Below are positions 15,125 through 48,553 of a DNA stretch of 64,000 nucleotides, in pieces. The notes under the pieces are model-generated. The model was given only the letters and a program-made list of their open reading frames with translations. It was not told where the DNA came from and did not search any database. Source of the DNA: an uncultured Elusimicrobia bacterium (lineage in GTDB: Bacteria > Elusimicrobiota > Elusimicrobia > UBA1565 > UBA9628); the NCBI GenBank assembly GCA_903881545.1, contig CAIRTQ010000094.1:1479-65478 (forward strand). Reading direction: 5' to 3'. Position 1 is the stretch's first letter; each line of letters starts with the position of its first letter. The position numbers were made by a program, and so were the translations under genes.

Positions 15125-15212
15125 CGGAGAAGATTAGTGGATGCGTGTTACAATTTCAAGTCACGCGGTCGGCGCGGGTTCCAGAAAGGCTAGAATCATC
15201 TGCTCCTAATAT

Positions 15213-17267: not shown

Positions 17268-17351
17268 CAGGCCGGCGTAAATCAGAACAAGGTGTTTACC
17301 TGTGGGGTTCTATATTATAGAATCGCAGGGTCGCGCAGTTGAAGGAGGCTT

Positions 17352-18284: not shown

Positions 18285-18383
18285 GCTTCGCGCCTCGGAG
18301 GATCATTCCGCGCAGTCGGGTTCCCGGATATGTGCTATCATTCTTATTGGTTACCGATGGCCGAATCGGGCCTAAACGATCTT

Positions 18384-18473
18384 GGAGAGGTGGCCGAGCG
18401 GCTGAAGGCGACGGTTTGCTAAACCGTTATATCCTGTAAAGGGGTATCGAGGGTTCGAATCCCTCCCTCTCCG
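18384..18473 (+). tRNA. tRNA-Ser (anticodon GCT), long variable arm
   Basis: GGAGAGG acceptor stem, anticodon loop TT-GCT-AA, long variable arm, T-arm GAGGG-TTCGAAT-CCCTC. No encoded CCA. Confidence 0.85.
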
Positions 18474-18533
18474 TATCTTTTTCTTCTGCGATGAAATATT
18501 TCTGTAAAGGCCAGACTCAACCCTAATCGCGTC

Positions 18534-34206: not shown

Positions 34207-34444
34207 TTCAATCCTCTTGCCGGCCTCGTGGGAATTTGGGCTCATGAATAATAGCATGATTGAGGCGCGAGGGAAAACCGCGCATCAAATCATATGAAAC
34301 ATTAAGAGTGTCCCTAAGTCGTACGTGGCGTGGTTTTTGTACGCCCGCTCGCCGATGTTGGCGAGCGGAACCGGAGGCCGAAGGCCGACGGAGCTGTGGC
34401 CGTCATTTGGATACGCTCCCGGCTTCGTTTCCGGGATATATCAA

Positions 34445-34516
34445 GTTATCTCCGACCTTATCTCCGACCTTATCTCCGACCTTATCTCCGACCTTATCTC
34501 CGACCTTCTCCCGCGC
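34445..34516. repeat. 12-nt direct tandem repeat (C/G)TTATCTCCGAC x5 plus a degenerate 6th unit
   Basis: Read directly from the sequence: gttatctccgac followed by four copies of cttatctccgac, then cttctcccgcgc. On the minus strand it encodes (KVGD)n. Confidence 0.85.
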
Positions 34517-34660
34517 CTTTAACGAACGCTCTGGCGAGCGATGAAACACGGCTCGGAAAAATCCGTTCGCTTCGAACTCAGGCGCCTTGAGCCCCGCCTC
34601 GGCCATGGCGTCCTTCATCCGCTTCATGCGCTGCGCCACTTTATGAAAGAGTTGCTGACA
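34445..34660 (-). pseudogene. Remnant of a RecG-like/AlbA_2-HATPase_c_4 'putative transcriptional regulator' gene (C-terminal fragment only)
   Basis: Minus-strand frame encodes ...AQRMKRMKDAMAEAGLKAPEFEANGFFRAVFHRS followed by the (KVGD)5 repeat. The GL.xPEFE...F.V.F.R motif matches the C-terminal region of this regulator family. No N-terminal ATPase part is present. Confidence 0.35.
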
Positions 34661-34792
34661 CCTTGCTGCGACATAGGCACAAGAGCGCAGCTGGGGCTTG
34701 CGGGGAGCAGCCGCTTAGGTGCATTCCGCTAACAGTACAAGCTGCATCTTTCGTCGAGAGAGTTGGTTTCAGGGCCGACTTGTTGGCGCAAA

Positions 34793-37700
34793 CTACTCCT
34801 TCTCAAACCCATGATTTTCGAACTTGAGGGTACGGCAATTCTCGGTGACGGTACGGACTACATGGTCTGGAACACCGAATGGGATATTCGCCTCGACCTC
34901 CAGGGTGACCTTGACCTCGGAGCCCACGATCCCGGCGAGGTGCGCGATAACCTCGTCGGCAATGCGGCCGGCGTCGCGGCCGACCCGCGTTGTTTCAAGC
35001 GTTACGCTCCCATGGAAACGCTTCGGTGGCGCCGCCACTACAGCAACCTTGGCGCTGGGAGTGCTGCTTCCCGACACCGCGATTGATGGGCCGCCGGACC
35101 CATTGGAAGGTTTCGCCGCCTCGTCCGGCGCTTGAGGGGCTTCGACTGCCAGTTGACGTTGGGCAGCATCTGGACGTACTATCAGGCCCAATGGACTGTC
35201 CTCGGCAATCCAGATGTGTTGACCGAAACGGAGACCACGATAACGGCCTGCGGTTTCGTCAAAACTCTCGGCATAAGCGAAAGAGTCTTGCATCCAGGTC
35301 AACAGAGCAAGGCCGCTCAAGATCGCATCGATGAGAACGGCTGAATCCTTTAGCCGCGGTAGATAGAGATACCGAGCGAAGTCCTCAGCTAATTGCTGGA
35401 TCGCCACATGATCCCCGCCGGCCTGTGCCGTATCCCGCGATGCGGCTGGCGCGCGCCACAGAGGGACCTGATCCAATTCCAATCGCAACCGGCTGGCCGC
35501 TAGCCCCGTAATCAAGAGTTCATCTTTACACAGCTTCTTGCTTGCACGAACCGCCAACGCATCCTGGCCTGTAAGACGGAAGGACTGCCATTCGACTGGT
35601 CCTTGTGGGGTTGCCTGTGTAGGCACAATCAACCACTGGTAGGTTTCTGGCAATCGGGCCGCAACCGCGCTGCTGGCGTTTTCCTTCTGTGCTACAGCCT
35701 GCTTGCTCTGGTGTGGGTCAAGATTGAGCGTTTCCGCTTCGTCGACGATGGAGGACCACGCCAGAAATCGGCGGATGGCCTCGTCCAGGTCTTGAAGCCG
35801 GTTTTTATCGGGCGCGAGAAAAACCAGGGCGTTACGGTAGATGCGCGGAGCGGTCCCGCGATTCTGCACCATCTCTTTCGCGGCCGCGATGGCCGGGCTC
35901 TCCGTGTCCTTAGTGTGCGGATACTCAATGCCGAATACGACCAGCCGAGCGTCCTTATCATCAGGCACGTCACCCGATGTCTTCGGCAATGGATGGATGC
36001 GGCTGAAGTCTCCGGCCTTGCGCAAATCATTGCGGAGCCACTTGCCGACTTCTTCCGCCACGGCATCCGGGTCCGACTTGAGTTGCTCGGCTCGGTCATC
36101 GGCCAGTTTCGTCACCGTCGGCTGTGTCGAATACCAATAGCGAGCAGAATCCTGGTAAAGAAAGGTTGCGGCACCGGCGAGCCGGCGCAAAGCATCGCCG
36201 AAGATGGCCGGCGACTCACCCGGCATCACGCAGCCCAACTTAATCCACCTGTCCTCCAGGCCCTTGTGGGCCGCCTTGGCTGTTGGGGCCGAACCAAGAT
36301 AGACTGTTCGCGCCACACGGCGGCAGGCGGAGTACTTGCCGAGGTTCGGCGTTTCCGCGTCAATGCGCAGCGGAACCGAGTTGGGGCCATCCACATCCTT
36401 TTCGATCACCGGCACCCAGTTGTCGGAGAGATAGCGGGTCAATTCGAACTGCACGCGAGGGTCGTCAATCGGGATATTTGAAGGCAGGATCAACGGACTG
36501 CGGTCGCCTTTCTCCCAGAGGCTGTGGATCACGGTGGCCATCAGACGCAGGACGCCCCGGGTGCGCTGGAACTTCACCAGCGTGGACCAGTCGTTGTACA
36601 GCCGATCAAAGACCTCTGGATGAATAGGATAGGCGGCCTTCAGCCGCCTCTCGTAGTCGCTATCGTGGCACTCCGGTGGAAACTCCGCCTGCTGGGTGCG
36701 ATAGAGGTCGAAGAACGCCTTTGCCACGGTGTCGCGGGCGACAAACTGGTCCTGCTCGATCAAGGGCTCGAACAGCCGCCGGCGCACGATCTCGAACCCC
36801 TCTTCGGCGCTGGCCGGCCGCCAAGATGCTTCCACGCGGCCAATCGAATTGCGCAGGCGGTCAAGCGCGGCCCGGCCGCGCTCACCGCCCACCTCTATGT
36901 CATCGGCCTGCGCGTGTGGCGACCCGGTCGTATCGGACGCCGGCAGACTAACCACCAGCAAGCACTGCTTCGCAAGCTTGGCGGATTCCGTGAGCGCCTG
37001 GGCGAAGGTGAAGTGCGTCTCGAAGTTGCCGCCTGGCAGGTCGCCCTGATCGTGGAGTTGGCGGGCGTAGGCTACCCATTCGTCAATGAGGATCAGGCAC
37101 GGACCGTAGTCGTTGAACAGGGCACGCAGTGCATCCCCGGGATTCGTGGCTCTCTCATCGTCCGCCTGAATGCGCTTAAAAGCCTTCTTAGCTTCTTTCT
37201 CACCGCCAGCCGAGTAGCCGAGCTGCCAAGCGATTTCCCCCCACAAGGTGCGGATCACGGTTCCGCCTGGCTTGGTCACCGGGTTGCCGGGGGAAATCTT
37301 GTTGCCCACCAAAACAACTCGATTGACCTTCGGCAGCTTGGTCACTTCGGCGTGCTGGAGGACCGAGTCCACACCAAGAAGCTCTCCGGGCGCGATGCCG
37401 GAGAAGAGGTGATAGAGGGCCAGCATGGAATGGGTTTTGCCCCCCCCGAAGTTCGTCTGGAGCTGAACGACCGGATCGCCACCCATGCCGCTAAGCCTCT
37501 GGGCGGCACTGGCCAGCAAGCCCCGCAAACTTTCCGTGAGGTAGGTGCGGCGGAAGAATTCCTTCGGTTTGCGGTACTCGTCCGAACCTTCGCCTAAATG
37601 AACCTGCCATAGGTCGGCGGCGAACTCCGCCTGCTGATACTTCCCGCTGGCCACGTCCTTGTGGGGACTCGCAACCTCCTTCCAAGGTTTAAGCCCGGCT

Positions 37701-38194
37701 TGCGCCTGTGTCTCGATGGTTGTGCTGGCGCTCTTGCGCTTTTCCGTGCGCACTTGCTCGTCGAAGCGTACGCGGAGCAATTCCATCTTCATCTTTTCGA
37801 CTTCGTCCGCCTCCGGTGCGGATACGGAAGCCAGAAGCCGGGCGGCGCTGTCCAGGGCGCGGTAGGCGTCGTCGGTGCTGAAGGGCCGCTGATGCGCCCA
37901 GCGATTGCGGGTTTCCCGCAACTCGCTGACTAGCGTGCGTTCGGCCTGCCCCAAGGTTTTGCGGAAAACATCGTTCCACTGGTTCCACATCGTAACGAGG
38001 ATGGCGGATGCATCCCACTGCGGCGCCTCCGGGGTTCCTAGGAGTTGAAGCTGGGAATCGGCGAGGGTGCGCTTTGTGTCAGCGAACCAGTTCGGCGGAT
38101 TGGTGTTTTTTAGCTCGCGCTCGACGAAGGGTTTTAGGCCTGACGACAGCAACTCCAACATCTTGCCGACGCGTTCGTGATTGGTAATGGCCAT
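34793..38194 (-). CDS. DUF499-family P-loop ATPase (BrxC/PglY/HmaC-like) with an N-terminal Swt1-like HEPN domain
   Basis: 1133 aa. The N-terminal ~130 aa carry a HEPN R-x4-H motif (RNRWAHQ). Walker A (NFGGGKTHS) and Walker B (CLILIDEWVAY). Size and architecture fit DUF499 defence ATPases. Confidence 0.8.
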   Translation of the reverse strand: MAITNHERVGKMLELLSSGLKPFVERELKNTNPPNWFADTKRTLADSQLQLLGTPEAPQWDASAILVTMWNQWNDVFRKTLGQAERTLVSELRETRNRWAHQRPFSTDDAYRALDSAARLLASVSAPEADEVEKMKMELLRVRFDEQVRTEKRKSASTTIETQAQAGLKPWKEVASPHKDVASGKYQQAEFAADLWQVHLGEGSDEYRKPKEFFRRTYLTESLRGLLASAAQRLSGMGGDPVVQLQTNFGGGKTHSMLALYHLFSGIAPGELLGVDSVLQHAEVTKLPKVNRVVLVGNKISPGNPVTKPGGTVIRTLWGEIAWQLGYSAGGEKEAKKAFKRIQADDERATNPGDALRALFNDYGPCLILIDEWVAYARQLHDQGDLPGGNFETHFTFAQALTESAKLAKQCLLVVSLPASDTTGSPHAQADDIEVGGERGRAALDRLRNSIGRVEASWRPASAEEGFEIVRRRLFEPLIEQDQFVARDTVAKAFFDLYRTQQAEFPPECHDSDYERRLKAAYPIHPEVFDRLYNDWSTLVKFQRTRGVLRLMATVIHSLWEKGDRSPLILPSNIPIDDPRVQFELTRYLSDNWVPVIEKDVDGPNSVPLRIDAETPNLGKYSACRRVARTVYLGSAPTAKAAHKGLEDRWIKLGCVMPGESPAIFGDALRRLAGAATFLYQDSARYWYSTQPTVTKLADDRAEQLKSDPDAVAEEVGKWLRNDLRKAGDFSRIHPLPKTSGDVPDDKDARLVVFGIEYPHTKDTESPAIAAAKEMVQNRGTAPRIYRNALVFLAPDKNRLQDLDEAIRRFLAWSSIVDEAETLNLDPHQSKQAVAQKENASSAVAARLPETYQWLIVPTQATPQGPVEWQSFRLTGQDALAVRASKKLCKDELLITGLAASRLRLELDQVPLWRAPAASRDTAQAGGDHVAIQQLAEDFARYLYLPRLKDSAVLIDAILSGLALLTWMQDSFAYAESFDETAGRYRGLRFGQHIWIAEDSPLGLIVRPDAAQRQLAVEAPQAPDEAAKPSNGSGGPSIAVSGSSTPSAKVAVVAAPPKRFHGSVTLETTRVGRDAGRIADEVIAHLAGIVGSEVKVTLEVEANIPFGVPDHVVRTVTENCRTLKFENHGFEKE

Positions 38195-38197
38195 GGA

Positions 38198-40027
38198 TTA
38201 CTCCGTTTGGGACAGCTTTGGCGTGTCCAACACCACAATGTCCTTAAAGTGTTCCGCCAGCCGATCTAACTTCTCGGCCACTTCAGGAGGCAAGTCGCTG
38301 GATGCGACGTCCTCGATCATTTGGCAATATTCGCCCTTTCGCAGAAGGACTGGCTGCTTTTGCCGCCGCGCGAACTCCTCGAACACGCCTTCGGCGAATT
38401 CGCTCATCTTGAGGTTACTGAGTAATGTCTTCTGCAAGCTGGCACTGGCCGTCTTATACTCGTCAAGCTGCTGGCGATCTCCAGCAAACACCTTCTTCAG
38501 AAGATGCTCATCCAGCACCTCCTGCATCGTTTTGACGTTCGACTCGGTGAACAAACCGCCTTCCTGATCGAAGACGCCGACAACAAATTTCAGAATGAGA
38601 TCAGGAGTAATATAGTAATTCTCAATCTCATAGCGTTGCCAATAAAGGATATCCAGGCCCTCCCCGCTTTCATCAGACAAGTCCCGCGCATCCTTGTCCA
38701 GAATGGCCAATCCCTTAAACTCCGGCACCAGTCCCTTCATGGCATGAAAATGGCGCTTAATGTTTTCCTGGAATGCCCCGCCCAGCCGATCTAGTTGATT
38801 GTCGAGCGTGTCGGCGGGCCCGACATTACGCGTGTAGTAGTAGTTGATGCGCCCCGCGAGCACCCCTGACGCAGGATGTTTAAGCTTCGCCGCGAGCGCC
38901 TTGAGCGTGTCAAAATCCGTGGATCCTTCGATATAGAGGATTCGGGGACACACTCGCGCTTTGTAGTAATGCTCGACCCCGAATGTCCGCAACGAGTTTC
39001 GCACGTTCTGCATCGTTGCAAGGTCGGCGGCCGTCCCATTAATAAGCAACGTCAGGTTGGTCTCGATCGCGTCGTCCAGAATGACTTCCGAATGTGTGGC
39101 CACCACAACTTGACTATTGTTCTCCGCCGCCACGTCCTTAAGCATCTCATAAACTTGTTTCTGCCGTAAAACTTCGAGATGAGCATCCGGTTCGTCAATC
39201 AGAAGCACGCTGCCCTTATTTGTGTAGAGATAGGAAAGGATCAACAGCATTTGCTGGAACCCACGCCCTGCCAGCGCGATGTCCATGTCGGCGTCAGTAT
39301 CTGGCTGGCTATAGCGCACGACCAATTCGCCGCGCTTCTCGTCTAGGCGTGGTCTGCCGAGCGCAACACCGAACAGTTTCTGGATCAGACGACCGATGCG
39401 GTCCCAATCTTCTGTTCTCTTTTCCTTGTCGTTCTCAACGACCTTGAAGCAGAGGTTGCGGAGCACCTGCGCCGTCTGGCCTTGCCCCAGCAGGACGTTA
39501 ACGCGGCCCTCGGGCACGAGGGTTTCGACCGGCTCAATTCCTGACATCGGGTAGAGCAAATGAAATGGGATGCTGCTCGCATGCGCAATTAGAGCATCGT
39601 CCTTCAGCGTCTCCTCACACGGCCGGCAGTAAAGGACCTCGCTGTCACGCACGGTAAACTCCATGCGACAGTCCTTGACCAGTCCGCCGTGCTCGACGCC
39701 CACATTGACCGTCAAGCGAATGGAGGCATTGTCCTTCCGCACCCGCATTCGGTTCCACAAAAAGCGATTCTCGGAGACCGGCACCTCAAGGATGCTCAGC
39801 CGGTTGATGCCTGCTGCGACCCGCTCTCTCTTTTCCTTCTGCCGAGGCCGGCCCTTGCGCTCGTACCATGCCTGCACGCCGCGGCTCCATAGGGCGAGGG
39901 CCTGGATCACGCTGGTTTTCCCGGCATTGTTTGGTCCGATCAGTACGGCAGGATGTCCCAGGTCCACATGAATTTTCCCACCAAATATCTTAAAGTTCTC
40001 GATTTCGACATAACGAATGCCTCGCAT
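38198..40027 (-). CDS. ABC-type (AAA_15/AAA_21, OLD-family-like) ATPase fused to a C-terminal DUF4435/TOPRIM-like domain (single-polypeptide PARIS AriA-AriB-like)
   Basis: 609 aa with Walker A (GPNNAGKTS), Walker B (VLLIDEPDAHLE) and H-loop (VVVATHS). The C-terminal ~200 aa carry YIEGSTDFD and DKDARD motifs resembling DUF4435 (YVEG ... DRD). Confidence 0.7.
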   Translation of the reverse strand: MRGIRYVEIENFKIFGGKIHVDLGHPAVLIGPNNAGKTSVIQALALWSRGVQAWYERKGRPRQKEKRERVAAGINRLSILEVPVSENRFLWNRMRVRKDNASIRLTVNVGVEHGGLVKDCRMEFTVRDSEVLYCRPCEETLKDDALIAHASSIPFHLLYPMSGIEPVETLVPEGRVNVLLGQGQTAQVLRNLCFKVVENDKEKRTEDWDRIGRLIQKLFGVALGRPRLDEKRGELVVRYSQPDTDADMDIALAGRGFQQMLLILSYLYTNKGSVLLIDEPDAHLEVLRQKQVYEMLKDVAAENNSQVVVATHSEVILDDAIETNLTLLINGTAADLATMQNVRNSLRTFGVEHYYKARVCPRILYIEGSTDFDTLKALAAKLKHPASGVLAGRINYYYTRNVGPADTLDNQLDRLGGAFQENIKRHFHAMKGLVPEFKGLAILDKDARDLSDESGEGLDILYWQRYEIENYYITPDLILKFVVGVFDQEGGLFTESNVKTMQEVLDEHLLKKVFAGDRQQLDEYKTASASLQKTLLSNLKMSEFAEGVFEEFARRQKQPVLLRKGEYCQMIEDVASSDLPPEVAEKLDRLAEHFKDIVVLDTPKLSQTE

Positions 40028-40039
40028 AGCTTTACCCCT

Positions 40040-41506
40040 TTAGAACAGCTCTGCCTGCGGTGTCTGAGATTCCCCGTCCTTGCGTGATAGGCGGGCCAAT
40101 TCCGGCCAGCCCATCACCAGCGCATTATAGCTTTGAGCGCCCTTACTCCACTGCTTCTTCTCGCAGACGGTGAACAGTTTATAGGCCAGGTCGCGGGCCA
40201 CATCCGCTTTACCGCCCAACTTGCGCAAGAGCGCCGCTGTGGCCGCGTCGCCTCGCTTCTCGGATACATACACGCGCAGCAGGTGATGGGTCATCTCCCA
40301 TACTGTCAGGCGCTTGTCCGTAGTGGGATCCCAGTCAGCCGGCAACTCCTCCGGACGAAGAAGACGGACCTGGTTGCCCTTGACCTCCACGATGCCAGCG
40401 GCGACGAGGCCATTCATGGCAGTGGCCTGCGCATTGGCCAGCAGGTTGGCCTGTCCGGCCTCGCCCCATTCAAATCCCGTGCCGGCGAACCAGGTCACCG
40501 CCCACCGCGTGTCCTTGTCGAGTTCCTCAACGGCCTCACCAAGCAATTCATCCTTCATGCCGTTGATGAGGGCCAGCGCGGTGCGAACGGCCATCGGCTT
40601 GCCATTGCTCTCCAACACGGCGGAGTAGCGGGAAAAGACCGCCATGCCGGGACCGATGGCCGCTTGCGCAAAGTCCACCGGGGCCACGTTGCCCTGTTGT
40701 AGATGGTGTAGCGCTGGCGGTAGCTCGCGTTTTAACTCTGCCACGAACGCATTCCGGCCGACTCGTAGCGCATCCGCCGGGCGCGGCCTACAGGCGAGCA
40801 CGATGTAGGAGGCTAGAGCGTTGGAACCCATCGCGCGCATTCGCCATGCTTGCGATGCGCGTACCGGCCACGTCCCAGTAATCTGGAAGTTGCTTGAGAT
40901 CAGTGCGTCAAGGAGCGTCTCCCAGCCTGTTGTGAGATCAATTCCCGCGGCCTCCGTCGATGCTTCATCCGCACCGCTTCCCTCGTCGTCTTGCTTGAAA
41001 GCGTAGTAAACGGTAAGCGGGAAGTGCGGATCCATCTCGTCCCGCAGGGCCGTGAAAGCCTTCCGGAATCCCGTCTCAAAATGTTGCTTAGCCCTTTCCT
41101 TGTCGCCCTCGAACCGGTCGGGAGAGGCGATCAGTTCCGTCATCTTGGGGACGAGCACGGTACGGAAAATGTCCGGATAATGTTCTCCGATTGTGCGTCT
41201 CAGCCAGACATAGGAGAAGTCCGACAGCGCGCCGTAGCTAATATTGTCGTAGTAGGGCGGATCGGTGCTGACCAGCAAGTTGCGGAGGCCGTTTGCGCCG
41301 GGGCAGCGTCGGCTTGGTGGACTGTCGCTACGGCTTCCGGATTCGGCGTTATCGTCTGAATGGCATCTGCGCATATGTCGACCGCGGTGTGCCAGCACAC
41401 GGCTTTTTCGCCCATTATGTTTGGCTCGACGAAGTCCCAGACCAACCGAATGACCTGTAGTCCGAAGAGATCCATTGACTGCTGACCACTCGCTTTCCAC
41501 CGGCAC
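40040..41506 (-). CDS. DUF1156-family N6-adenine DNA methyltransferase, C-terminal part (real portion begins near nt 41300, containing DPPYYDN motif IV)
   Basis: LLVSTDPPYYDNISY... and the downstream C-terminal domain. Upstream of about 41300 this frame is R/S-rich nonsense. Confidence 0.75.
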   Translation of the reverse strand: MPVESEWSAVNGSLRTTGHSVGLGLRRAKHNGRKSRVLAHRGRHMRRCHSDDNAESGSRSDSPPSRRCPGANGLRNLLVSTDPPYYDNISYGALSDFSYVWLRRTIGEHYPDIFRTVLVPKMTELIASPDRFEGDKERAKQHFETGFRKAFTALRDEMDPHFPLTVYYAFKQDDEGSGADEASTEAAGIDLTTGWETLLDALISSNFQITGTWPVRASQAWRMRAMGSNALASYIVLACRPRPADALRVGRNAFVAELKRELPPALHHLQQGNVAPVDFAQAAIGPGMAVFSRYSAVLESNGKPMAVRTALALINGMKDELLGEAVEELDKDTRWAVTWFAGTGFEWGEAGQANLLANAQATAMNGLVAAGIVEVKGNQVRLLRPEELPADWDPTTDKRLTVWEMTHHLLRVYVSEKRGDAATAALLRKLGGKADVARDLAYKLFTVCEKKQWSKGAQSYNALVMGWPELARLSRKDGESQTPQAELF

Positions 41507-42870
41507 AGAGCATTATTGAAGTCTGCGCAGCGATCAACCGCGAGGGCAAGAAACGTCGCCACCGACTGGGCATAGGCACCGGCCTCTGCATGGGTCCAAC
41601 CCGCCGCAATAGCATCGCGCCGCACGTCCGCGTCGATCTCCTTTACTAGGTCACTCAAAGTCACCATTGCCGTGAGCTGCCGGGGAGTAAAAAGCTGCCA
41701 GTGCTTCCGAATGCCGTAGTTCTGAACCCGGAAGCCTAGTGCTTCATCGGGAAGATCTGTATCTGGGAAGCCCTGCGGTTTGGCTGAATTAGCGGCCTCG
41801 ACCTGCTCCGGGCTTATCGGGATATAAGTACGACCGCGGGGGAGCTCAGCTACAACTGCGAGCATGACGCATCCCAGCCGACCACTTTGCCCTTCACTGC
41901 GAATGTACTCAAATGGGATGGGTGCGTCGGTGAGCAGGCACCGAAACCCCCCCCTGCCTCCCTTCGTTCCCTCATCAATTTGTGTCCGATTTACGGGCGC
42001 TCCCGTCCGCACCACAAACCGGTAAGTACACTTGGCCTTGTCCACCACCGGCTCCATCCAGTGATAAGGCGGCTTCTTGTCCTTCCTTGGGGAATTCAGC
42101 CAATACGTGCTGATGAGCGGCACATGGATGCCTCGTGCCGCAGGGTTCGGGCTAGCAACCGTGCGAGCCCAAATCCATGCGATGACGTTGGCCTCGCCGC
42201 TTCCATTTTCCTTAGGCAGGTGCACCTTAGGGTAAAGACTTCCAATCTTCGCATACGCTCTATGGCGAACCAGCCGCCCGTAGTAGCGTACGTCGGCTGC
42301 GAGTCCGTTCGCGCCGTGCCAAGACTGTGTACCTCCAATCCGCTTACGGTCCTCCGAATTTACGGGCGGTCTATTCACCCAGCGCGGCGCAAGCTCCAGA
42401 TTGCACTTGTTGAGCATCACTGCGATAGGATTTAGGTCGCCTGCGTGGGCTTCAAATCCAAGTCGGTTAGCCTCAAGAGGGATGGATCCACCGCCGGCAA
42501 ACGGGTCAAGCACGGGCGGGAGCTTTCCGTCGCAGTGCTTGAGCATCTCCTCCTGTGCCTCAGCATAGACCTCCGGATGTTCATGGAGTTTCTTGCCCAT
42601 GAGTCGCCGGATGATCCCGAACAGTCGCTCCCGCTCAGCATCCTGCTTGGCCTCGCTCTTGCCCGCCCACGCCGGATTATCCGAAGGATCGGTCACGACC
42701 GAAGCGAACAGCACCGCCCGCGCGGTCGGCAGCGGCAACCGCGCCCACCAGTGGTGGATGCCCTTCGGATGCGGCCCGATTCCCGGCATCTTGTCGTAGG
42801 ACGACGCATCGTTGATCTCTGGCAGCGGGAGCGCCACCTCGATAAGCTTCTTTTTATACGGAACCGTCAT
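41200..42870 (-). CDS. DUF1156-family N6-adenine DNA methyltransferase, N-terminal part (real portion 42870 down to about 41300; frameshifted relative to the C-terminal part)
   Basis: Starts MTVPYKKKLIEVALPLPEIN (DUF1156 signature N-terminus) with SAM-binding DPFAGGGSIP (motif I). The frame degenerates after about 41300. Its ATG overlaps the PIN gene's TGA stop as ATGA. Confidence 0.75.
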   Translation of the reverse strand: MTVPYKKKLIEVALPLPEINDASSYDKMPGIGPHPKGIHHWWARLPLPTARAVLFASVVTDPSDNPAWAGKSEAKQDAERERLFGIIRRLMGKKLHEHPEVYAEAQEEMLKHCDGKLPPVLDPFAGGGSIPLEANRLGFEAHAGDLNPIAVMLNKCNLELAPRWVNRPPVNSEDRKRIGGTQSWHGANGLAADVRYYGRLVRHRAYAKIGSLYPKVHLPKENGSGEANVIAWIWARTVASPNPAARGIHVPLISTYWLNSPRKDKKPPYHWMEPVVDKAKCTYRFVVRTGAPVNRTQIDEGTKGGRGGFRCLLTDAPIPFEYIRSEGQSGRLGCVMLAVVAELPRGRTYIPISPEQVEAANSAKPQGFPDTDLPDEALGFRVQNYGIRKHWQLFTPRQLTAMVTLSDLVKEIDADVRRDAIAAGWTHAEAGAYAQSVATFLALAVDRCADFNNALCRWKASGQQSMDLFGLQVIRLVWDFVEPNIMGEKAVCWHTAVDICADAIQTITPNPEAVATVHQADAAPAQTASATCWSAPIRPTTTILATARCRTSPMSG

Positions 42871-43418
42871 GGGCACGCTCTGAGCAGGCGCGGATGAGAG
42901 GTCAAAACATCGATCCCGCCAGAGGTGAAATCGCCATCGTTGGTGACCAGTTTCCAGCCATGATGACGGCAAGTCTCGGCGAGGAGGCCGTCGTTGAAGT
43001 CATTCACTCCAGTCTCAAAGTCAGCAAGTACTTGCGTGACGTTGGCGGCGGAAAATGGATGGTCGTGCCTAGTGCAGAGTTTAAGCATTTCTCGTGCGTA
43101 CGTGGCGGCGCCTGCCCCCACAGACTTAAAAGCGGGGGATTTGCGGAACATTTTAAAGTCCGGCTGCGCCGCCTTGTGTAATGCAATCCACTCGATCCGG
43201 CAGTAGCGGTTGAGGTACTCGCTGAGGATCAGTGCATCCATAACCAGGCGTGATCCAGCGGTCAGTATGCCCTTCAGGGCGTTCGAATAGCTGGCAGCAC
43301 GCCAATCGGGCTTATTGGACGGGGCCGGATAGAGGTAGAGCCAGACATTGGCATCCAGCAAAAAGGGCTCGTTCTTCTGGAAAGCATACTTGGAGAGGTC
43401 GTGAGCTTTATTCTTCAT
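42867..43418 (-). CDS. PIN-domain nuclease (VapC-like)
   Basis: About 183 aa from MKNKAHDL. Conserved acidic residues in LLDANVWL, DALILSEY and TNDGDF. Confidence 0.7.
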   Translation of the reverse strand: MKNKAHDLSKYAFQKNEPFLLDANVWLYLYPAPSNKPDWRAASYSNALKGILTAGSRLVMDALILSEYLNRYCRIEWIALHKAAQPDFKMFRKSPAFKSVGAGAATYAREMLKLCTRHDHPFSAANVTQVLADFETGVNDFNDGLLAETCRHHGWKLVTNDGDFTSGGIDVLTSHPRLLRACP

Positions 43419-43767
43419 TATTGCCCACCTCTTCCTTCCACGCCGCATCAAATCGTTTCGGGGCTTTGAAATACGCCTTAGCGTTTTCGACCACGCGCTT
43501 GAGGACTATGCGGTCTTCCTCATCCATGTCGCGGACCGAAAGCAGTTCCCTAATTCGGTCTTCAGGGAACTTGCCGTAGAGCTGCCCAATCGCGGCGTTG
43601 AGGAAAGACGAGATCATCGTCTCCACCTGCTCAAAGGAGAGGGAAACTTTCTTCCCCTCGCTCAGCAGGAGAGCGATCTTGTCGTAAACGCGTTGGCCAT
43701 CATCGGCAGATACGCCCAACGGACCACCGACGATATCGAATACACGAACCACAATTGGCTCACTCAT
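43408..43767 (-). CDS. DUF4325-like (STAS-like) small protein
   Basis: 119 aa (MSEPIVVRVFDIVGG...GKKVSLSFEQVETMISSFLNAAIGQLYGKF) resembling the STAS-like DUF4325 family. Overlaps the PIN gene by 11 nt. Assignment is from memory of the family and is unverified. Confidence 0.45.
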   Translation of the reverse strand: MSEPIVVRVFDIVGGPLGVSADDGQRVYDKIALLLSEGKKVSLSFEQVETMISSFLNAAIGQLYGKFPEDRIRELLSVRDMDEEDRIVLKRVVENAKAYFKAPKRFDAAWKEEVGNNEE

Positions 43768-43785
43768 CTTTCCACTCCATTCTGT

Positions 43786-44655
43786 TTAGAAAATGCTCTC
43801 TGGCGGTATCTCCGACGCCAGAACATAGGATTCTGTGTCGGCAGTGTTGATCTCGATGGTCACGGCCGTACCAGGGAAATCTGCAGCCATCTTCGCGAAG
43901 GACTCCTGGCCATCGCCGAACTCGTAAAATCCGAATCGGGAGGCGATCTGAATTCGGCCCTTGTTCAGCCGGACGAATTCCTGAAGAAACTTCAGGCCCA
44001 ATCCCCCCGGTTGAGGCCCTCTCTTCGTGGTATGGCCCTCCTGCAATGCCCAGCGAATCGCATCAACAGAAGACATTTTGCCGCCGAGAAATCGGCGGAC
44101 GCTTTCCCTAATGCCAATGCCCGCATCCACAATCGTCAGATCGAGTCTTTGCTTCTGCGGGAAGAACTGTCCGCAAACGAAGATCCCGAGTTCTGACTCG
44201 GAATGAATCACGGCATTCTGGAAGACCTCAAAAATCTTCTTCTTAAACACTTTGCCGAGCCCTTCGGACATGCGAGGAATGCCCTTGCCTCTCAGGTGCC
44301 GTTCCACGTAATCGGCAAAGAGCCCTTCGTCCGAACGCTGGAGGCGGCGAAACGGAATGGTGGTTCGGTTCACGTCGTCCAACGCCGGGTAACGGTATTG
44401 CGTCAAGAAACCGTTTTTCCGCAAGATGTGTTCCACCATTTCCGGAACGCTGACCACTTCAATGGCATTGAAGCGATCTGCTACTCGCGCCAGCACCGCC
44501 CCGAGAGGGGCAGCCATGTTGGCGGCGAAAAAACCGACTTGGGACAGATCGAGTTCCAAACGACTGGCCGAAAGCATAGCAGTTTCTCTGGCCAACTCCG
44601 CCAGCCGTTCGTATCCATCCCGGCCGCTTTGGACTGTTGGCAAGCGGGAGATCAT
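43786..44655 (-). CDS. GHKL-superfamily ATPase (histidine-kinase/RsbW-like ATP-binding domain) with an unknown N-terminal domain
   Basis: 289 aa with N-box (EVFQNAVIHS), G1 (IVDAGIGI) and G2 (GGLGLKF). Its ATG overlaps the helicase TGA as ATGA. Confidence 0.7.
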   Translation of the reverse strand: MISRLPTVQSGRDGYERLAELARETAMLSASRLELDLSQVGFFAANMAAPLGAVLARVADRFNAIEVVSVPEMVEHILRKNGFLTQYRYPALDDVNRTTIPFRRLQRSDEGLFADYVERHLRGKGIPRMSEGLGKVFKKKIFEVFQNAVIHSESELGIFVCGQFFPQKQRLDLTIVDAGIGIRESVRRFLGGKMSSVDAIRWALQEGHTTKRGPQPGGLGLKFLQEFVRLNKGRIQIASRFGFYEFGDGQESFAKMAADFPGTAVTIEINTADTESYVLASEIPPESIF

Positions 44656-47600
44656 GATGGCGCTCCAGCCCGCTCTAGCAAATCTGCAAAATTGTAATTT
44701 ACGCTGGTCACGCCGAAGTCTGGCTCCCGCCGGAAAGGGTGGCGGACATAATGAACCCGCTGTTTCTCGCCGTCGAATTCAACGATGGCGAGAATGAAGT
44801 CATCGGGTTTGTTGAGCGAGTACAGGATTTCATTCTTGGTGACGGTGATCGTGGCGGCGCCCGTGACGCGTCCCTTCACCTCAATAAAGCGCAGCCGCCC
44901 GGTGCCAGGCACGCGGCTCTCGATGTCGTAGCCCAGCTTCTCGGTCTCGCGGTCGGCGGGGATGAAGCCCAGGCCGCGCTCGACCATCATCACGGCCTCG
45001 CGTGCTCGCGCTGCCGCGGCCAAGGTGTCGGCTGCGACGCGTGGGAGTTCGGCGGAATGACCTGTCATGGCGGCAAGCAGGCCCGCAGGTATCACCACAA
45101 GGCCGCCCAACACGACCGGGGGCAAAGGGGCGATCTGCCGTTCGAGTTTGAGTTCCTCCATCCGCTTCTGCAACCGTCCCTGAAGGGCATCCGCGCGTTT
45201 CCGCGCTTCATCCGAGTTAAGTCGCGCATTAGGCCTGCCCGCCTGTTCCTGGAGCTTAAGCTCTTCGGCGCGGTGGTCCCAATAGCTGATCTCCTTCGTC
45301 AATCGGTCCTGCACCGCCGCCTCGGTCTTAGCAATGAGATCGAGCTTGCGCGCGCGAACCTCATTAAGGTGTTCGGGCACGACATTCGCGACGGCGTACC
45401 CCTGCGCTTTTTGCTCCAGTTCTCGGGTTATCCAAGCGCATTCCGGTCGGGCCAATATCGCGTCCACCGCCGGTTCGCCGTCCGCCAACGGGCGATAATC
45501 CAGGTAGGGCGCATAATGCGGATTGCGCGCGTTGCCGTCCGCCTCCAGTTCCACATAAAGCATCCGCTTGGATATGACGCGACGCTCCCCCGCCGCCATG
45601 GCGGCGGCAGGCAGGCCCGTCCGTGCCAGGCTTGCGTCCTGAATGGCATGCTCCAGATAAAAGAGTACGCGAGGGCGTGTCCCGCAGTCGCGCTCGTCGA
45701 CCAGCACCGTGCCGCGGCGCAGCAAATCGCGATGGCGTTCAAGGGTGAGGTCTATGGTGACGTCCAGTAACGGGTGCCCCGGGCACAGGAATGCGGCCAG
45801 TGGCTGGCCCTGCGGAGCGACCAGGGATTTCTCAAAGGCAACCCGCTCGTAGCGCGACAACAACGGCTCGGCGATTCCAATGAGCCGGTCGCGATTGCGC
45901 AGAGGAGATGGGACATGCGCGATCTCATAGCGGCGCGGTTCGCGCTGCTTAACCGAACCCCCCAAACGCTGGAAGGCATCGAGGAAGAAAGATTCAACGT
46001 AATGGGGTTGCAAACGACGCGCCTCGGCTCGCTCCATCTCCTCGCGAATGCGGTACACGCGAGTGGCGTCCATCGCGTCGTGCGCGAGAGCATGTTCTTC
46101 GAGCAAATCGCGCAACTTGGCAGGGTCCACGGAATTGGCGACCACTTGCGTAAGCTTGGCGCGAACATCGGGGCGTTCCCCGTAACGAATCGCCTCGATC
46201 AAGAGCTCACGCAGAGGTTTTCCCCCAAATTGGAGCTTCCCTAGCACATCAAAGACTTGGCCTCCCAGGGTTTCCCGGGCCTGTTCCAGCTTTTCCAGCA
46301 GAGTTCGGTATACGTCTCCCTCGCGGGTTTCTTCGGCGACGAGATTCCAAAGATGACAGACTTCGGTCTGTCCAATGCGATGAATACGGCCGAACCGTTG
46401 CTCGATACGGTTCGGATTCCATGGCAGATCATAATTCACCATCAGGTGCGCCCGCTGGAGGTTAATCCCTTCGCCAGCGGCATCCGTCGCCAAAAGGACC
46501 TGAACTGCGGGATCGTGTTTGAATGCTTCCTGCGCCTTCATCCGCTCCTCACGGCCCATGCCGCCATGAATCATCACTACTGCTTCCTTTCGCCCAAGAA
46601 GGGTCGTAATTCGATTCTCTAAGTAGTTGAGGGTGTCGCGGTGCTCGGTGAAGAGGACAAGTTTCTGGCGCGGGGACGAAGTCGGCGGCGGGATTGTCGC
46701 AGACCCGTGAGTGAGTGGGCGCTCAGCCACCTGGGTGGCATGGATGGCGGACGTGAAGATTTCGTTTAACAGTTGGGAGAGCTCACGCCACTTCTTATCC
46801 TCACCGCTCCGGCGGAGCGTGAGCGCCAGCGCTTCAAGGCGCTTTAGCGTCGTGATTTCCGCTTTCAGTTCCGAGATTGTTCGCGCCGCGGTCGACTGGT
46901 CGAGAATCTCCTCTTCCGCCGTCTCGACCTCATTATCAGGGGCGTCTTCGAGATCTTCAACATCCTCATCATCCAGCACCGGGATCCCGGCCGCCATGGC
47001 AGGCGCGGTTACGCTCCCCCGCTGGAGTAATTTCAACTCTTCCAGTTTGCTTTCCAACCGTTCGCGACGACGACGCAACGACTGATAGATGGCTTCAGGC
47101 GACGAGGCCAAACGGCGCTGCAAAATAGTGAGCGCAAAACCGACGGTGCCGGCGCGCTTATCGTTCTGAAGCGCATCAGCCCGGTTGAACTCCTCGCGAA
47201 CGTAGTCGGTCACTTCCTTGTAGAGTTGCGCCTCCGCATCGGAGAGCTTGTATGGAACAGTGTAGGCTATCCGTTCCGGAAACAGCGGAGTCGCATCGAA
47301 CTTGAGCAGCCCTTCCTTGACCATGCGCCGCATCAGATCAGAGGCGTCAGAGGCGTGAACGCCATCACGGAAGCGTCCCTCGAATCTATCCCCATCGAGG
47401 AGCGCCATGAAAAGCTGAAAATCCTCTTCCTTGCCATTGTGCGGCGTCGCGGTCATCAGCAAGAAATTCCGGGTCATAGTGGAGAGAAGCTGACCGAGCT
47501 TGTAGCGCTTCGTATACTTGACCTCGCCATTGAATATGCTGGCGGACATCTTATGCGCCTCGTCGCATACGATGAGATCCCATCGGCAGTCGGGAGCTCT

Positions 47601-48257
47601 CAGCTTGTCTTGAACATCCTCATTGCGCGAGAGCTTGTCGAGCCGGGCGATGACCAGGTTTGTCTCAAGGAACCAGTTGCCAGTGCGAGCGGATTCCAGC
47701 TTGTCATTGGTCAATATCTCAAAAGGCAGGTGAAATCGACGATAGAGCTCATCTTGCCATTGCTCGGCCAGACTGCCTGGACAGACCACCATACAACGAT
47801 GCAGGTCTCCTCGGGCAATTAACTCCTTCATGAGGAGCCCTGCCATGATTGTCTTGCCCGCGCCAGGGTCGTCGGCCAACAAAAAGCGCAGGGGTTGACG
47901 CGGCAGCATCGTGTCGTAGACCGCCGTGATCTGGTGCGGGAGTGGCTCAACTACTGAGGTGTGGACGGCAAGGACCGGGTCAAACAAATGGGCCAATCGG
48001 ATCCGATGAGCTTCGGAGACTAGGCGAAACAGCGCGCCATCCCCATCAAAACTCCATGGCCGTCCTTGAAGGGCCACCTCGACACGCGCTTCGTCCTGAC
48101 GATATAAAAGCTCGTTAGACACTTTACCGGCTGGGTCTTTGTAGGTTAACTCAAGGGCGTCCGAGCCGAACCACTGAACATTGACGACAGAGACAAGGCA
48201 TTCCGGTAAAATGCCTCTTACTGAAGCGTTCGGTTTTAGTTCCTCTAGCTTGCTCAT
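44652..48257 (-). CDS. SNF2/DEAD-like superfamily-2 helicase with C-terminal DUF3883 (HmaA-like)
   Basis: 1201 aa from MSKLEELKPN. Motif I (LADDPGAGKT), motif II (DEAH), helicase C-terminal motifs (LLATDAAGEGINLQ, QRFGRIHRIGQ). C-terminal domain (IEVKGRVTG...TKNEILYSLNKPDDFILAIVEF) typical of DUF3883. Confidence 0.85.
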   Translation of the reverse strand: MSKLEELKPNASVRGILPECLVSVVNVQWFGSDALELTYKDPAGKVSNELLYRQDEARVEVALQGRPWSFDGDGALFRLVSEAHRIRLAHLFDPVLAVHTSVVEPLPHQITAVYDTMLPRQPLRFLLADDPGAGKTIMAGLLMKELIARGDLHRCMVVCPGSLAEQWQDELYRRFHLPFEILTNDKLESARTGNWFLETNLVIARLDKLSRNEDVQDKLRAPDCRWDLIVCDEAHKMSASIFNGEVKYTKRYKLGQLLSTMTRNFLLMTATPHNGKEEDFQLFMALLDGDRFEGRFRDGVHASDASDLMRRMVKEGLLKFDATPLFPERIAYTVPYKLSDAEAQLYKEVTDYVREEFNRADALQNDKRAGTVGFALTILQRRLASSPEAIYQSLRRRRERLESKLEELKLLQRGSVTAPAMAAGIPVLDDEDVEDLEDAPDNEVETAEEEILDQSTAARTISELKAEITTLKRLEALALTLRRSGEDKKWRELSQLLNEIFTSAIHATQVAERPLTHGSATIPPPTSSPRQKLVLFTEHRDTLNYLENRITTLLGRKEAVVMIHGGMGREERMKAQEAFKHDPAVQVLLATDAAGEGINLQRAHLMVNYDLPWNPNRIEQRFGRIHRIGQTEVCHLWNLVAEETREGDVYRTLLEKLEQARETLGGQVFDVLGKLQFGGKPLRELLIEAIRYGERPDVRAKLTQVVANSVDPAKLRDLLEEHALAHDAMDATRVYRIREEMERAEARRLQPHYVESFFLDAFQRLGGSVKQREPRRYEIAHVPSPLRNRDRLIGIAEPLLSRYERVAFEKSLVAPQGQPLAAFLCPGHPLLDVTIDLTLERHRDLLRRGTVLVDERDCGTRPRVLFYLEHAIQDASLARTGLPAAAMAAGERRVISKRMLYVELEADGNARNPHYAPYLDYRPLADGEPAVDAILARPECAWITRELEQKAQGYAVANVVPEHLNEVRARKLDLIAKTEAAVQDRLTKEISYWDHRAEELKLQEQAGRPNARLNSDEARKRADALQGRLQKRMEELKLERQIAPLPPVVLGGLVVIPAGLLAAMTGHSAELPRVAADTLAAAARAREAVMMVERGLGFIPADRETEKLGYDIESRVPGTGRLRFIEVKGRVTGAATITVTKNEILYSLNKPDDFILAIVEFDGEKQRVHYVRHPFRREPDFGVTSVNYNFADLLERAGAPS

Positions 48258-48553
48258 TTGAGAAGACGCATCCCAGCATCCCATCGCCCGGTAGAAAATG
48301 ATTCTATAAAACCAGCACTAGGCCGGGCTAAGCGCAAGGGCACCATTCAGTCGAGTAGGAGATTTTAGCATGATTGGGCCATCGGGATGCGGCAGACTGA
48401 CAATAGTGCTGGCCGAACTCGACGGCGATAGGACGTAAACTGGTCTCCTCGGCGGCACCTGCGCTTCGCTTAGTGCCGCCGGTTGCGCCCGGCATACGGC
48501 CGCCGGGCGCTCGCTACGGCAAAGCCCGAACTTTATTGTCCCTTATCCGGCGG

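Follow-up and report, generated by a model that had tools for sequence, protein, structure and literature searches.

What are we looking at when two further immunity modules lie between the genes of a known type of phage defence locus: one new machine, or known systems nested in each other? The question is raised by a block of roughly 14 kb in a 64,000-nucleotide (nt) stretch of DNA, here called the window, from an uncultured Elusimicrobia bacterium (GenBank assembly GCA_903881545.1, contig CAIRTQ010000094.1, positions 1,479 to 65,478). A first interpretation made from the letters alone, here the sequence-only reading, had described the block as a helicase-methylase-ATPase (Hma)-like system with two inserted modules, in an architecture not known before. 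Our analysis leads, with good confidence, to a horizontally acquired seven-gene anti-phage operon, in which an Hma core carries between its genes the trio VapKSC and a fused ATPase-nuclease resembling PARIS (phage anti-restriction-induced system). Related loci from other genomes, with which the window was compared, carry L-numbers.

Gene layout and the Hma core

Seven tightly packed reading frames occupy the minus strand at 34793-48257, as seen from the list of open reading frames (ORFs) and their translations. Their order is hmaA, vapK, vapS, vapC, hmaB, ABC-Toprim gene (ABC, ATP-binding cassette) and hmaC:

44652..48257, minus strand: hmaA, Snf2-family helicase with a C-terminal NOV_C/DUF3883 PD-(D/E)xK nuclease domain, 1201 amino acids (aa)
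43786..44655, minus strand: vapK, predicted STAS + GHKL kinase, 289 aa; start codon overlapping with the stop of hmaA in an ATGA
43408..43767, minus strand: vapS, predicted STAS-like (DUF4325) antitoxin and kinase substrate, 119 aa
42867..43418, minus strand: vapC, predicted PIN-domain toxin, 183 aa; shares 11 nt with vapS, and an ATGA with hmaB, in which the vapC stop and the hmaB start overlap
40040..42870, minus strand: hmaB, DUF1156 N6-adenine-type DNA methyltransferase, 2831 nt, frameshifted; 943 aa once one C is restored
38198..40027, minus strand: merged PARIS-like (AriAB-like)/OLD-family gene, 609 aa, N-terminal ABC ATPase and predicted C-terminal Toprim (DUF4435-like) nuclease
34793..38194, minus strand: hmaC, DUF499 STAND/ORC-like ATPase with a fused HEPN RNase domain of the Swt1 type, 1133 aa

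Both this order and the tight coupling of the genes had been recognized correctly by the sequence-only reading. When all junctions are read, they consist of ATGA start/stop overlaps (44652-44655 for hmaA/vapK, 42867-42870 for vapC/hmaB), an overlap of 11 nt (43408-43418, vapS/vapC), and gaps of 18 nt between vapK and vapS, 12 nt between hmaB and the ABC gene, and 3 nt between the ABC gene and hmaC. Promoter-like and terminator-like matches in a sequence scan stayed at the level of chance (5 found and 4.3 expected, 13 found and 14.3 expected, respectively), and neither support nor weaken the claim of a single operon. The GC content of the block is indeed below that of its flanks, at 58.4% against 66.7% and 70.0%, rather than at the 55% or so estimated before; the lowest values belong to the inserted genes (52.8-55.3%). 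Housekeeping genes stand on both sides, a saccharopine-dehydrogenase-family gene and an Orn/Arg decarboxylase gene on one, and aerotolerance-type DUF58, BatA and DUF4159 genes on the other.

The Hma-like core is confirmed by PADLOC, with E-values of 0 or about 1e-145 for the three proteins, and by Pfam. HmaA matches its PADLOC profile at E=0 (1698 bits, profile positions 1-1171 of 1176), starting at residue 10 of the long ORF, for which an alternative ATG start lies at 48284; its product has 1201 aa in a second assembly too. It contains SNF2-rel_dom, Helicase_C, ResIII and NOV_C domains in Pfam (NOV_C E=5e-19), and the motif GYDIESR...RFIEVKG. The two pieces of HmaB match at E=1e-147 and 1e-143, with motif I (DPFAGGGS) before the frame break and motif IV (DPPY) after it. 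HmaC reaches E=0 (1124 bits) in PADLOC, and E=4e-37 for HEPN_Swt1 and E=1e-26 for DUF499 in Pfam, and its translation holds the Rx4H motif as RNRWAH. All three genes are located on the minus strand within 13.5 kb, with the four other genes interleaved. Of the domain calls made previously, Pfam backs HEPN_Swt1 with DUF499, AAA_21/AAA_15, DUF1156, PIN, DUF4325, HATPase_c and SNF2/Helicase_C/NOV_C, and leaves DUF4435 below its threshold.

The name Hma comes, as cited in PMC11232893, from PADLOC (Payne et al. 2021). More recently, the system was renamed type-1 BREX-related (BR; BREX, bacteriophage exclusion), a DUF499-centred system of 2446 taxa, in which HmaC carries a HEPN fusion in 1370 of the 2446 taxa and HmaA a C-terminal PD-(D/E)xK nuclease in 79% (PMC12839542). 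The window locus agrees in its three core proteins, which PADLOC matches over their full length, including the HEPN domain of HmaC, the nuclease of HmaA and the N-terminal DUF1156 domain of HmaB. It differs by its frameshifted hmaB, by the four extra genes among the core, and by an HmaB central block wholly unlike that of an otherwise 88-89% identical locus. No gene for PglZ, BrxA, BrxB or BrxL was found in or beside the block by Pfam, PADLOC or the annotation of the flanks, and the locus is BREX-related (Hma), not BREX and not type-3 BREX.

The VapKSC trio

The first of the two inserted modules, three genes between hmaA and hmaB, is identified by its sequence as VapKSC. In this recently described system, VapK is a CapK-like STAS+GHKL kinase, VapS a STAS-domain antitoxin and VapC a PIN toxin (Chambers et al., EMBO J 2026, PMC13373217). 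The proposed model is that single-stranded DNA (ssDNA) activates VapK, and that the active kinase phosphorylates VapS at Ser48, setting VapC free; for the Escherichia system, ssDNA activation and VapC release were inferred from mutants and AlphaFold 3 models (PMC13373217).

VapK of the window has a HATPase_c domain in Pfam (E=8e-6) and a weak N-terminal STAS_2 match (19.7 bits vs a cut-off of 29.2). Its identity to residues 1-186 of Escherichia VapK is 27% (BLASTP, E=2e-22); this query and that for Escherichia VapS were taken from a supplementary model file. F42 aligns with F54 of the ssDNA site, and E143, N147 and H151 with the N-box residues E156, N160 and H164; among 24 homologues, F42 is conserved to at least 90% and N147 is invariant. 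The protein has 906 database homologues, the best 120 of which, from many phyla, are 62-93% identical to it. VapS belongs to DUF4325 (Pfam E=7e-19), has as best PDB match 9z7o_A, ‘Escherichia VapS’ (E=8e-12), and is 34% identical to the Escherichia protein (BLASTP, E=4e-17), with S53 aligned to the phospho-acceptor S48 and a 20-residue tail beyond the aligned region. VapC is a PIN protein (Pfam E=1.4e-9) with 9z7o_C, ‘Escherichia VapC’, as best PDB match (E=4e-4); D22 aligns with the catalytic D28, and the C-terminal TNDGDF is conserved.

Shared with the published system (PMC13373217, 9z7o) are the K-S-C gene order, the STAS+GHKL composition of VapK with its Phe (F42=F54) and N-box, the Ser (S53=S48) and C-terminal tail of VapS, and the Asp (D22=D28) of VapC. 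What sets the window trio apart is the distance of all three proteins from the Escherichia ones, and its place inside an Hma operon to which it is translationally coupled, a context without mention in PMC13373217.

VapK is also matched, with E=9e-12 at profile positions 143-274, by the PADLOC model PDLC02567 (1750 positions) for DrmA of DISARM (defence island system associated with restriction-modification); for VapS, the match to this model is weak (positions 327-389, E=0.021). It may be that certain DrmA proteins have a VapK/VapS-like region fused at their N-terminus.

The ABC-Toprim protein

The second module, between hmaB and hmaC, is a single gene. The N-terminal half of its product matches AAA_21 (E=2e-22) and AAA_15 (E=1e-18) in Pfam. 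In PADLOC the best family for the whole protein is AriA (E=1.7e-24), followed by AriAB (E=3.6e-19), and for the C-terminal domain alone AriAB (E=4e-6) and AriB (E=1e-4). When modelled separately, the C-terminal domain had AriB as its best structural match. A Foldseek search with the whole protein was dominated by heads of ABC and SMC (structural maintenance of chromosomes) proteins, with AriA (8v47_H) among them; the ATPase half is therefore not specific to PARIS. Among 42 aligned homologues, E367-G368-x2-D371, D444 and Y466-E467-x-E469-N470 are invariant and D446 is present in at least 90%, which corresponds to conserved Toprim-type motifs ExxD, DxD and YExEN. DUF4435 matched at E<=0.1 in five of the 42 relatives only, and a sequence-level match to AriA or AriB was not found in the PDB.

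The likeness to PARIS consists of an ABC ATPase with AAA_15/AAA_21, of AriA, AriAB and AriB as best PADLOC families, and of the acidic Toprim motifs. The difference is that the window protein is one polypeptide of 609 aa, and a release of AriB from an AriA scaffold is impossible in the same way in a fusion. Merged ariAB genes are known from two of the 11 PARIS subclades (PMC11464382). We refer to the protein as PARIS-like/OLD-family, a candidate rather than a proven member.

One candidate trace of the gene's arrival was rejected. The 30 nt before the starts of the ABC gene and of hmaC look alike by eye, as a junction duplicated upon insertion would, but 8 of 500 shuffles reach the same alignment and the likeness is absent in L098.

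Genomic contexts of VapKSC relatives

How often does the trio occur in such a place? A scan with a VapK alignment, restricted to one genome per species, yielded 80 loci, a sample biased towards relatives of the window VapK; the genes around each VapK were identified by tblastn with the window proteins. VapS and VapC follow VapK in all of them except L023, where the contig ends after vapS. The sequence-only reading had proposed to look for the inserted genes in homologous Hma loci. In our survey, made from the side of VapK, VapKSC has Hma genes as neighbours (HmaA-VapKSC-HmaB-HmaC) in 33 of the 80 loci, and in 26 of the 30 loci in which VapK is at least 57% identical to that of the window. The exact seven-gene order recurs in L010 and L011, while the ABC gene was found in none of the 80. 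Another 14 loci have VapKSC in type-3 BREX, in the order BrxC-PglXI-VapKSC-BrxHII-PglZ-BrxA (PADLOC). Fifteen loci belong to neither system despite enough contig, and 18 contigs are too short to judge, so that 47 of the 62 classifiable loci have VapKSC inside Hma or type-3 BREX.

Within Hma, the trio is closely packed, being within 30 nt of its neighbour in 19/29 cases on the HmaA side and in 20/28 on the HmaB side. The order HmaA-VapK-VapS-VapC-HmaB-HmaC is found, for example, in L002, an Elusimicrobia metagenome-assembled genome (MAG), and in L004, a Nitrospira MAG. In the Latescibacterota loci L006-L009, VapKSC is directly upstream of HmaB, with HmaC and HmaA downstream. Most Hma-linked VapKs form one clade in a rough neighbour-joining tree. 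L068, with an HmaA 83% and a VapK 51% identical to those of the window, indicates that different VapKSC lineages can occupy the same junction of close Hma loci.

The type-3 BREX loci have a homologous core of ATPase, methylase and Snf2 helicase, and here too VapKSC stands between methylase and helicase (L055, L059, L063). They differ in having PglZ and BrxA, in the reversed order methylase-VapKSC-helicase, and in a helicase without the C-terminal nuclease. The placement between PglXI and BrxHII was seen in L055 (8820-11779) and L063 (6978-14712), and also in L056, L058, L059, L061 and L095; in L055 a gene for a 358-aa AriA/PtuA-like ABC ATPase lies directly upstream of vapK.

Hma-clade VapKSC (VapK 52-64% identical) also occurs without any Hma or type-3 BREX gene within 10 kb, in L040, L041, L044, L045 and L065. 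In these five loci, either the host system was lost or the trio has moved elsewhere.

Seen from the Hma side, the association is weak. Hma with VapKSC is a recurrent minority subtype, mostly of uncultured lineages, because among 122 plasmid records with an HmaC-like gene a full-length VapK relative was present on one plasmid only, and a close HmaC relative on a Burkholderia plasmid belongs to a plain three-gene HmaABC. In the published table of 289 VapKSC instances (Dataset EV3), the neighbours include brex_type_III, DMS_other and RM_type_I, never ‘hma’, and most instances have no PADLOC neighbour within 10 kb (PMC13373217).

Separable modules and alternative cargo

The ABC gene is a variable add-on. 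Set against L002, it is 1.85 kb of cleanly inserted DNA that separates the hmaB stop from the hmaC start, and L002, L004 and L017 all have Hma with VapKSC and without it. The opposite combination exists as well: in L098/L099 (3001-9815), arranged HmaA-GmrSD-HmaB-ABC-HmaC, a relative of the ABC-Toprim protein with 84% identity is located at the hmaB/hmaC junction, and the hmaA/hmaB junction holds a GmrSD-type gene (GmrSD_N/GmrSD_C) and two tiny ORFs. Both junctions therefore take alternative cargo. Solitary relatives of the ABC protein, with 81%, 60% and 58% identity, stand alone in L012, L014, L100 and L101.

Other genes were observed at the hmaB/hmaC junction of the Latescibacterota. L006 has an MNT+HEPN pair (14683-15406), and L007 a Schlafen/AlbA_2+HATPase_c_4 gene together with DuOB and DUF488 genes (14433-17458).

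Transfer of the block and probable exchange within hmaB

The limits of the transferred DNA, and of a segment exchanged inside it, can be read from close relatives of the locus:

34760..48394, minus strand: transferable unit, the seven genes plus adjoining DNA, about 137 nt long before hmaA and about 33 nt long after hmaC
41282..42116, minus strand: hmaB variable central block, presumed target-recognition region, exchanged between near-identical loci

The DNA similarity to L010 (Elusimicrobia MAG GCA_026388095.1), 88-89%, starts and ends at 48394 and 34760, and the genes flanking L010 are different. The seven-gene order is exactly the same in L010, in L011 and in a sibling contig from ENA. The comparison with L010 identifies the interval 48394-34760 as a mobile block, and the horizontal acquisition first proposed from the GC content is borne out by the lower GC together with the 88-89% identity to a differently flanked locus. 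Mobility linked to an integrase or a tRNA was considered and dropped, since no integrase or tRNA gene adjoins the block and its closest tRNA genes lie at 18.4 and 25.2 kb.

In blastn comparisons with L010 and L011, similarity is undetectable over 41282-42116, against 88-89% identity on either side. L002 has the same pattern, and across the three loci the sides of the block are 81-89% identical. At the protein level, HmaB and its L010 counterpart are 24-60% identical (mostly 24-42%) over residues ~250-535, and 88-100% over residues 1-150 and 686-943. This looks like what would be expected from the exchange of a target-recognition block, and a target-recognition domain insert has been described in these methylases (PMC12839542).

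VapC, too, was observed to change apart from its partners. In L027 (=L002), VapK is 93%, VapS 82% and VapC 35% identical to the window proteins, and a divergent PIN lineage (35-40% identity) replaces VapC in L027 (11238-11789), L020, L022 and L071, with VapK and VapS at 65-93%. It looks as if the toxin gene alone is swapped in these cases.

Shortly after the end of hmaC, beyond the limit of the unit that L010 has in common with the window, there is a minus-strand ORF, 34403-34627, which translates as MKRMKDAMAEAGLKAPEFEANGFFRAVF...(KVGD)x5... and contains at 34446-34507 a perfect 12-nt tandem repeat of 5.2 copies (Tandem Repeats Finder score 124). It may be a gene remnant. Neither a Pfam nor a plasmid match was found for it, and an apparent likeness to the C-terminus of AlbA_2/HATPase_c_4 (Schlafen-like) proteins was not borne out in a comparison with the Schlafen-like protein of L007 (E=13).

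The hmaB frameshift

The methylase gene had been taken for one ORF from 42870 to 40040, and here the sequence-only reading overlooked a frameshift:

41300..41303, minus strand: C4 run at which the frame shifts (minus strand GCTGCCCCGGCG); with a fifth C it would read ...QADAAPGANGLRNLLVSTDPPYYD

The span of 2831 nt is not divisible by 3, and the ORF list has two overlapping ORFs in different frames instead (41200-42972 and 40040-41506). PADLOC matches HmaB profile positions 6-566 in one frame and 568-960 in another. With the intact HmaB of L004 as tblastn query, residues 1-519 align in frame 1 up to nt 1569 of the gene, and residues 521-928 in frame 3 from nt 1572. The break falls in the run GCTG-CCCC-GGCG, where one nucleotide is missing, between the S-adenosylmethionine-binding motif I and the catalytic motif IV (DPPY). 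One added C gives a stop-free protein of 943 aa. This restored HmaB has no exact match in the protein collection searched, and the best HmaB relative returned is 73% identical.

In the sibling assembly, ENA ERZ1426829, VapK is identical and the flanks are the same, and the methylase is a single gene of 943 codons, in which the extra nucleotide is deduced from gene length alone; its gene lengths match those of the window except for the choice of start codon in two flanking genes. Because this assembly has an intact gene, the frameshift is most likely an assembly error in a homopolymer or a minority variant.

Precedent

The view that no such composite architecture had been described does not hold: insertions in hmaABC have been published (PMC11232893, PMC12839542), and the arrangement is recurrent. 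About 66.5% of hma loci carry insertions, and Septu, PARIS and Ppl occur within hma regions (PMC11232893). In Halomonas, every hma has a pair of AAA_21 ATPase genes between hmaB and hmaC; an arrangement hmaA-ptuAB-hmaB...hmaC is found there, and PARIS, Ppl and GmrSD-like insertions in hma loci are on record as well (PMC11232893). BREX and BR operons were reported to contain embedded effectors, termed ‘auxiliary and backup’, among them OLD-ABC with Toprim (PARIS-like) and PIN RNases (PMC12839542). The window locus resembles these in having defence modules at both the hmaA/hmaB and the hmaB/hmaC junctions, with an AAA_21/OLD-type ABC ATPase at the latter, and differs in that its ABC and Toprim parts form one polypeptide and not a gene pair.

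Two further immunity modules do stand between the Hma genes, as claimed, and both correspond to systems that have a name already, VapKSC and a merged PARIS-like AriAB. The building blocks and the nesting habit are known, and the locus defines no new system, since all three blocks and their nesting in Hma/BREX-type operons have been published. What is probably new is that VapKSC keeps a conserved place, with the methylase gene on one side and the helicase gene on the other, in Hma as well as in type-3 BREX; the swapping of the HmaB target-recognition block may be new also. A link between VapKSC and Hma or type-3 BREX is not stated in the main text of PMC13373217, PMC12839542 or PMC11232893. The trio of GHKL kinase, STAS protein and PIN protein is unnamed in the searchable text of PMC11232893 and PMC12839542, the latter with 0 occurrences of ‘GHKL’, ‘STAS’ and ‘DUF4325’.

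Proposed mechanism and alternative readings

On the basis of the observed gene identities, key residues, gene order, separability, recurrence and horizontal transfer, we infer the biochemical steps and the division of labour from published work on each family. HmaB would methylate the host DNA. HmaC, a STAND-like ATPase with an N-terminal HEPN RNase, would scan for invaders and recognize them, and HmaA, with its Snf2 helicase and PD-(D/E)xK nuclease, would restrict unmodified DNA. VapS would keep the PIN toxin VapC inactive until ssDNA switches on the GHKL kinase VapK; phosphorylation of VapS at Ser53 would then release VapC, which would cut RNA and stop growth. The PARIS-like protein may sense a phage anti-restriction protein or a similar trigger, which would unleash its Toprim nuclease, whose target in PARIS is tRNA. 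Trigger and target are analogies here, because DUF4435 is sub-threshold and the PDB holds no sequence relative. Both inserts would act as abortive-infection back-ups to front-line restriction, expressed from the same coupled gene string. They are read as separable back-ups because the sub-combinations occur: Hma with VapKSC (L002, L004, L017), Hma with GmrSD and the ABC gene (L098), plain Hma on the Burkholderia plasmid, the solitary ABC genes and the lone VapKSC. Several observations weigh against this account of a nested, working operon. The kinship of VapC to the characterized Escherichia toxin is distant (E=4e-4). DUF4435 stays below its Pfam threshold in the ABC protein (E=0.017, 15.3 bits vs 27), and a profile of the C-terminal domain found no relevant relative among the PDB sequences. 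In Halomonas, HmaA alone protected the cells and HmaB was without modification effect (PMC11232893). Finally, a real hmaB frameshift would mean a dead methylation arm, and the model would then fit an ancestor and not the present state.

Could the seven genes nevertheless be an obligate seven-component machine of a new kind, without separable parts? The junctions are tight throughout, and the exact order returns in L010, L011 and the ENA contig, yet every sub-combination is found in nature, from HmaABC alone to VapKSC alone or in type-3 BREX, the ABC gene is missing from all 80 VapK loci, and relative to L002 it is a clean insertion; we find such a machine hardly credible. A closer integration of the trio with its host systems is possible, and we entertain it tentatively. 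VapKSC would then be a dedicated arm of Hma and type-3 BREX, in which VapK reads the ssDNA that arises when the Snf2 helicase(-nuclease) engages its target, so that ongoing or failing restriction is turned into RNase-mediated growth arrest. That VapKSC keeps its position between the genes for methylase and Snf2 helicase in each of two homologous systems speaks for such a wiring to the helicase, as do its frequency there (33/80 and 14/80 loci, 47/62 of the classifiable ones), the short distances to its neighbours, the recruitment of different VapKSC lineages to the same junction (L068), and the single clade of most Hma-linked VapKs. The DrmA match of VapK hints at fusions to DISARM helicases, and the VapKSC authors themselves suggest that restriction-generated DNA damage could activate such kinases (PMC13373217). 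On the other hand, VapKSC alone protects E. coli (PMC13373217) and the same junction takes other cargo (GmrSD in L098, Septu in Halomonas), both of which argue against wiring, the latter fitting a generic insertion hotspot. Most of the 289 published instances lack a PADLOC neighbour and ‘hma’ is never listed, 15 of the 62 classifiable loci are in neither system, the sample favours relatives of the window VapK, and a full-length VapK was found on one plasmid among 122. The fullest version of this idea, which we regard as somewhat unlikely, is that this VapKSC lineage has become a conserved accessory that travels with Hma and type-3 BREX, always between methylase and helicase, and provides their abortive-infection output by sensing helicase-made ssDNA.

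A different doubt concerns whether the locus works at all. A genuine hmaB frameshift would make it a decaying or switched-off locus, with an Hma arm that is non-functional or altered and the inserted modules maybe the sole active parts. The frame does change at the C4 run before the catalytic DPPY motif of the 2831-nt gene, and it does so about 20 nt within the 3' edge of the recombining variable block, so a recombination scar is conceivable. Against this, both halves of hmaB are otherwise intact (66% and 70% identity to L004) and free of further stops, all other genes of the block are intact, and the second assembly with identical VapK and the same flanks has one 943-codon gene. Indels in homopolymers are, moreover, a common assembly error, and we consider decay unlikely. 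Very improbable, in our view, is a frameshift with a function, either a programmed -1 ribosomal frameshift or a phase-variable methylase switch. The break does fall in a homopolymer, where the frame would be regained by a -1 slip on GCC-CCG; however, four or five Cs are shorter than typical phase-variable tracts, the methylase is read in a single frame in L004, L010, L019 and L025, and the gene is intact in the sibling assembly. Neither a slippery heptamer nor a structure downstream of the run was noticed, although no search was aimed at them. The nested operon, with an hmaB that was most likely misassembled or sampled from a minority variant, is the reading that we retain.

Other features of the window

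Away from the block, a tRNA-Ser(GCU) gene at 18383-18474 is followed by an ORF of 1139 aa (18534-21953) that carries an FTP propeptide motif and, at its C-terminus, a FlgD_ig domain, in a stretch of somewhat lower GC (~62%). Downstream of the BatA/DUF58/DUF4159 genes, an ORF of 1707 aa (54471-59594) has both a radical SAM domain, at residues 221-384, and an array of TPRs that is very long.

Biological meaning

The locus ties VapKSC, a system named in 2026, to a genomic home, the methylase-helicase junction of Hma or type-3 BREX, which it has in three quarters of the classifiable loci of our sample. Its placement leads to a testable hypothesis, namely that helicase-generated ssDNA is the signal that couples restriction to abortive infection. 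The exchange in the middle of hmaB points toward a switching of the specificity of this methylase. With seven genes in 13.6 kb, the block is also a compact natural construct for dissecting layered immunity. If VapKSC is indeed wired to the helicases, one transcript would encode a three-tier circuit, from restriction, through an ssDNA-triggered RNase, to an anti-anti-restriction nuclease.

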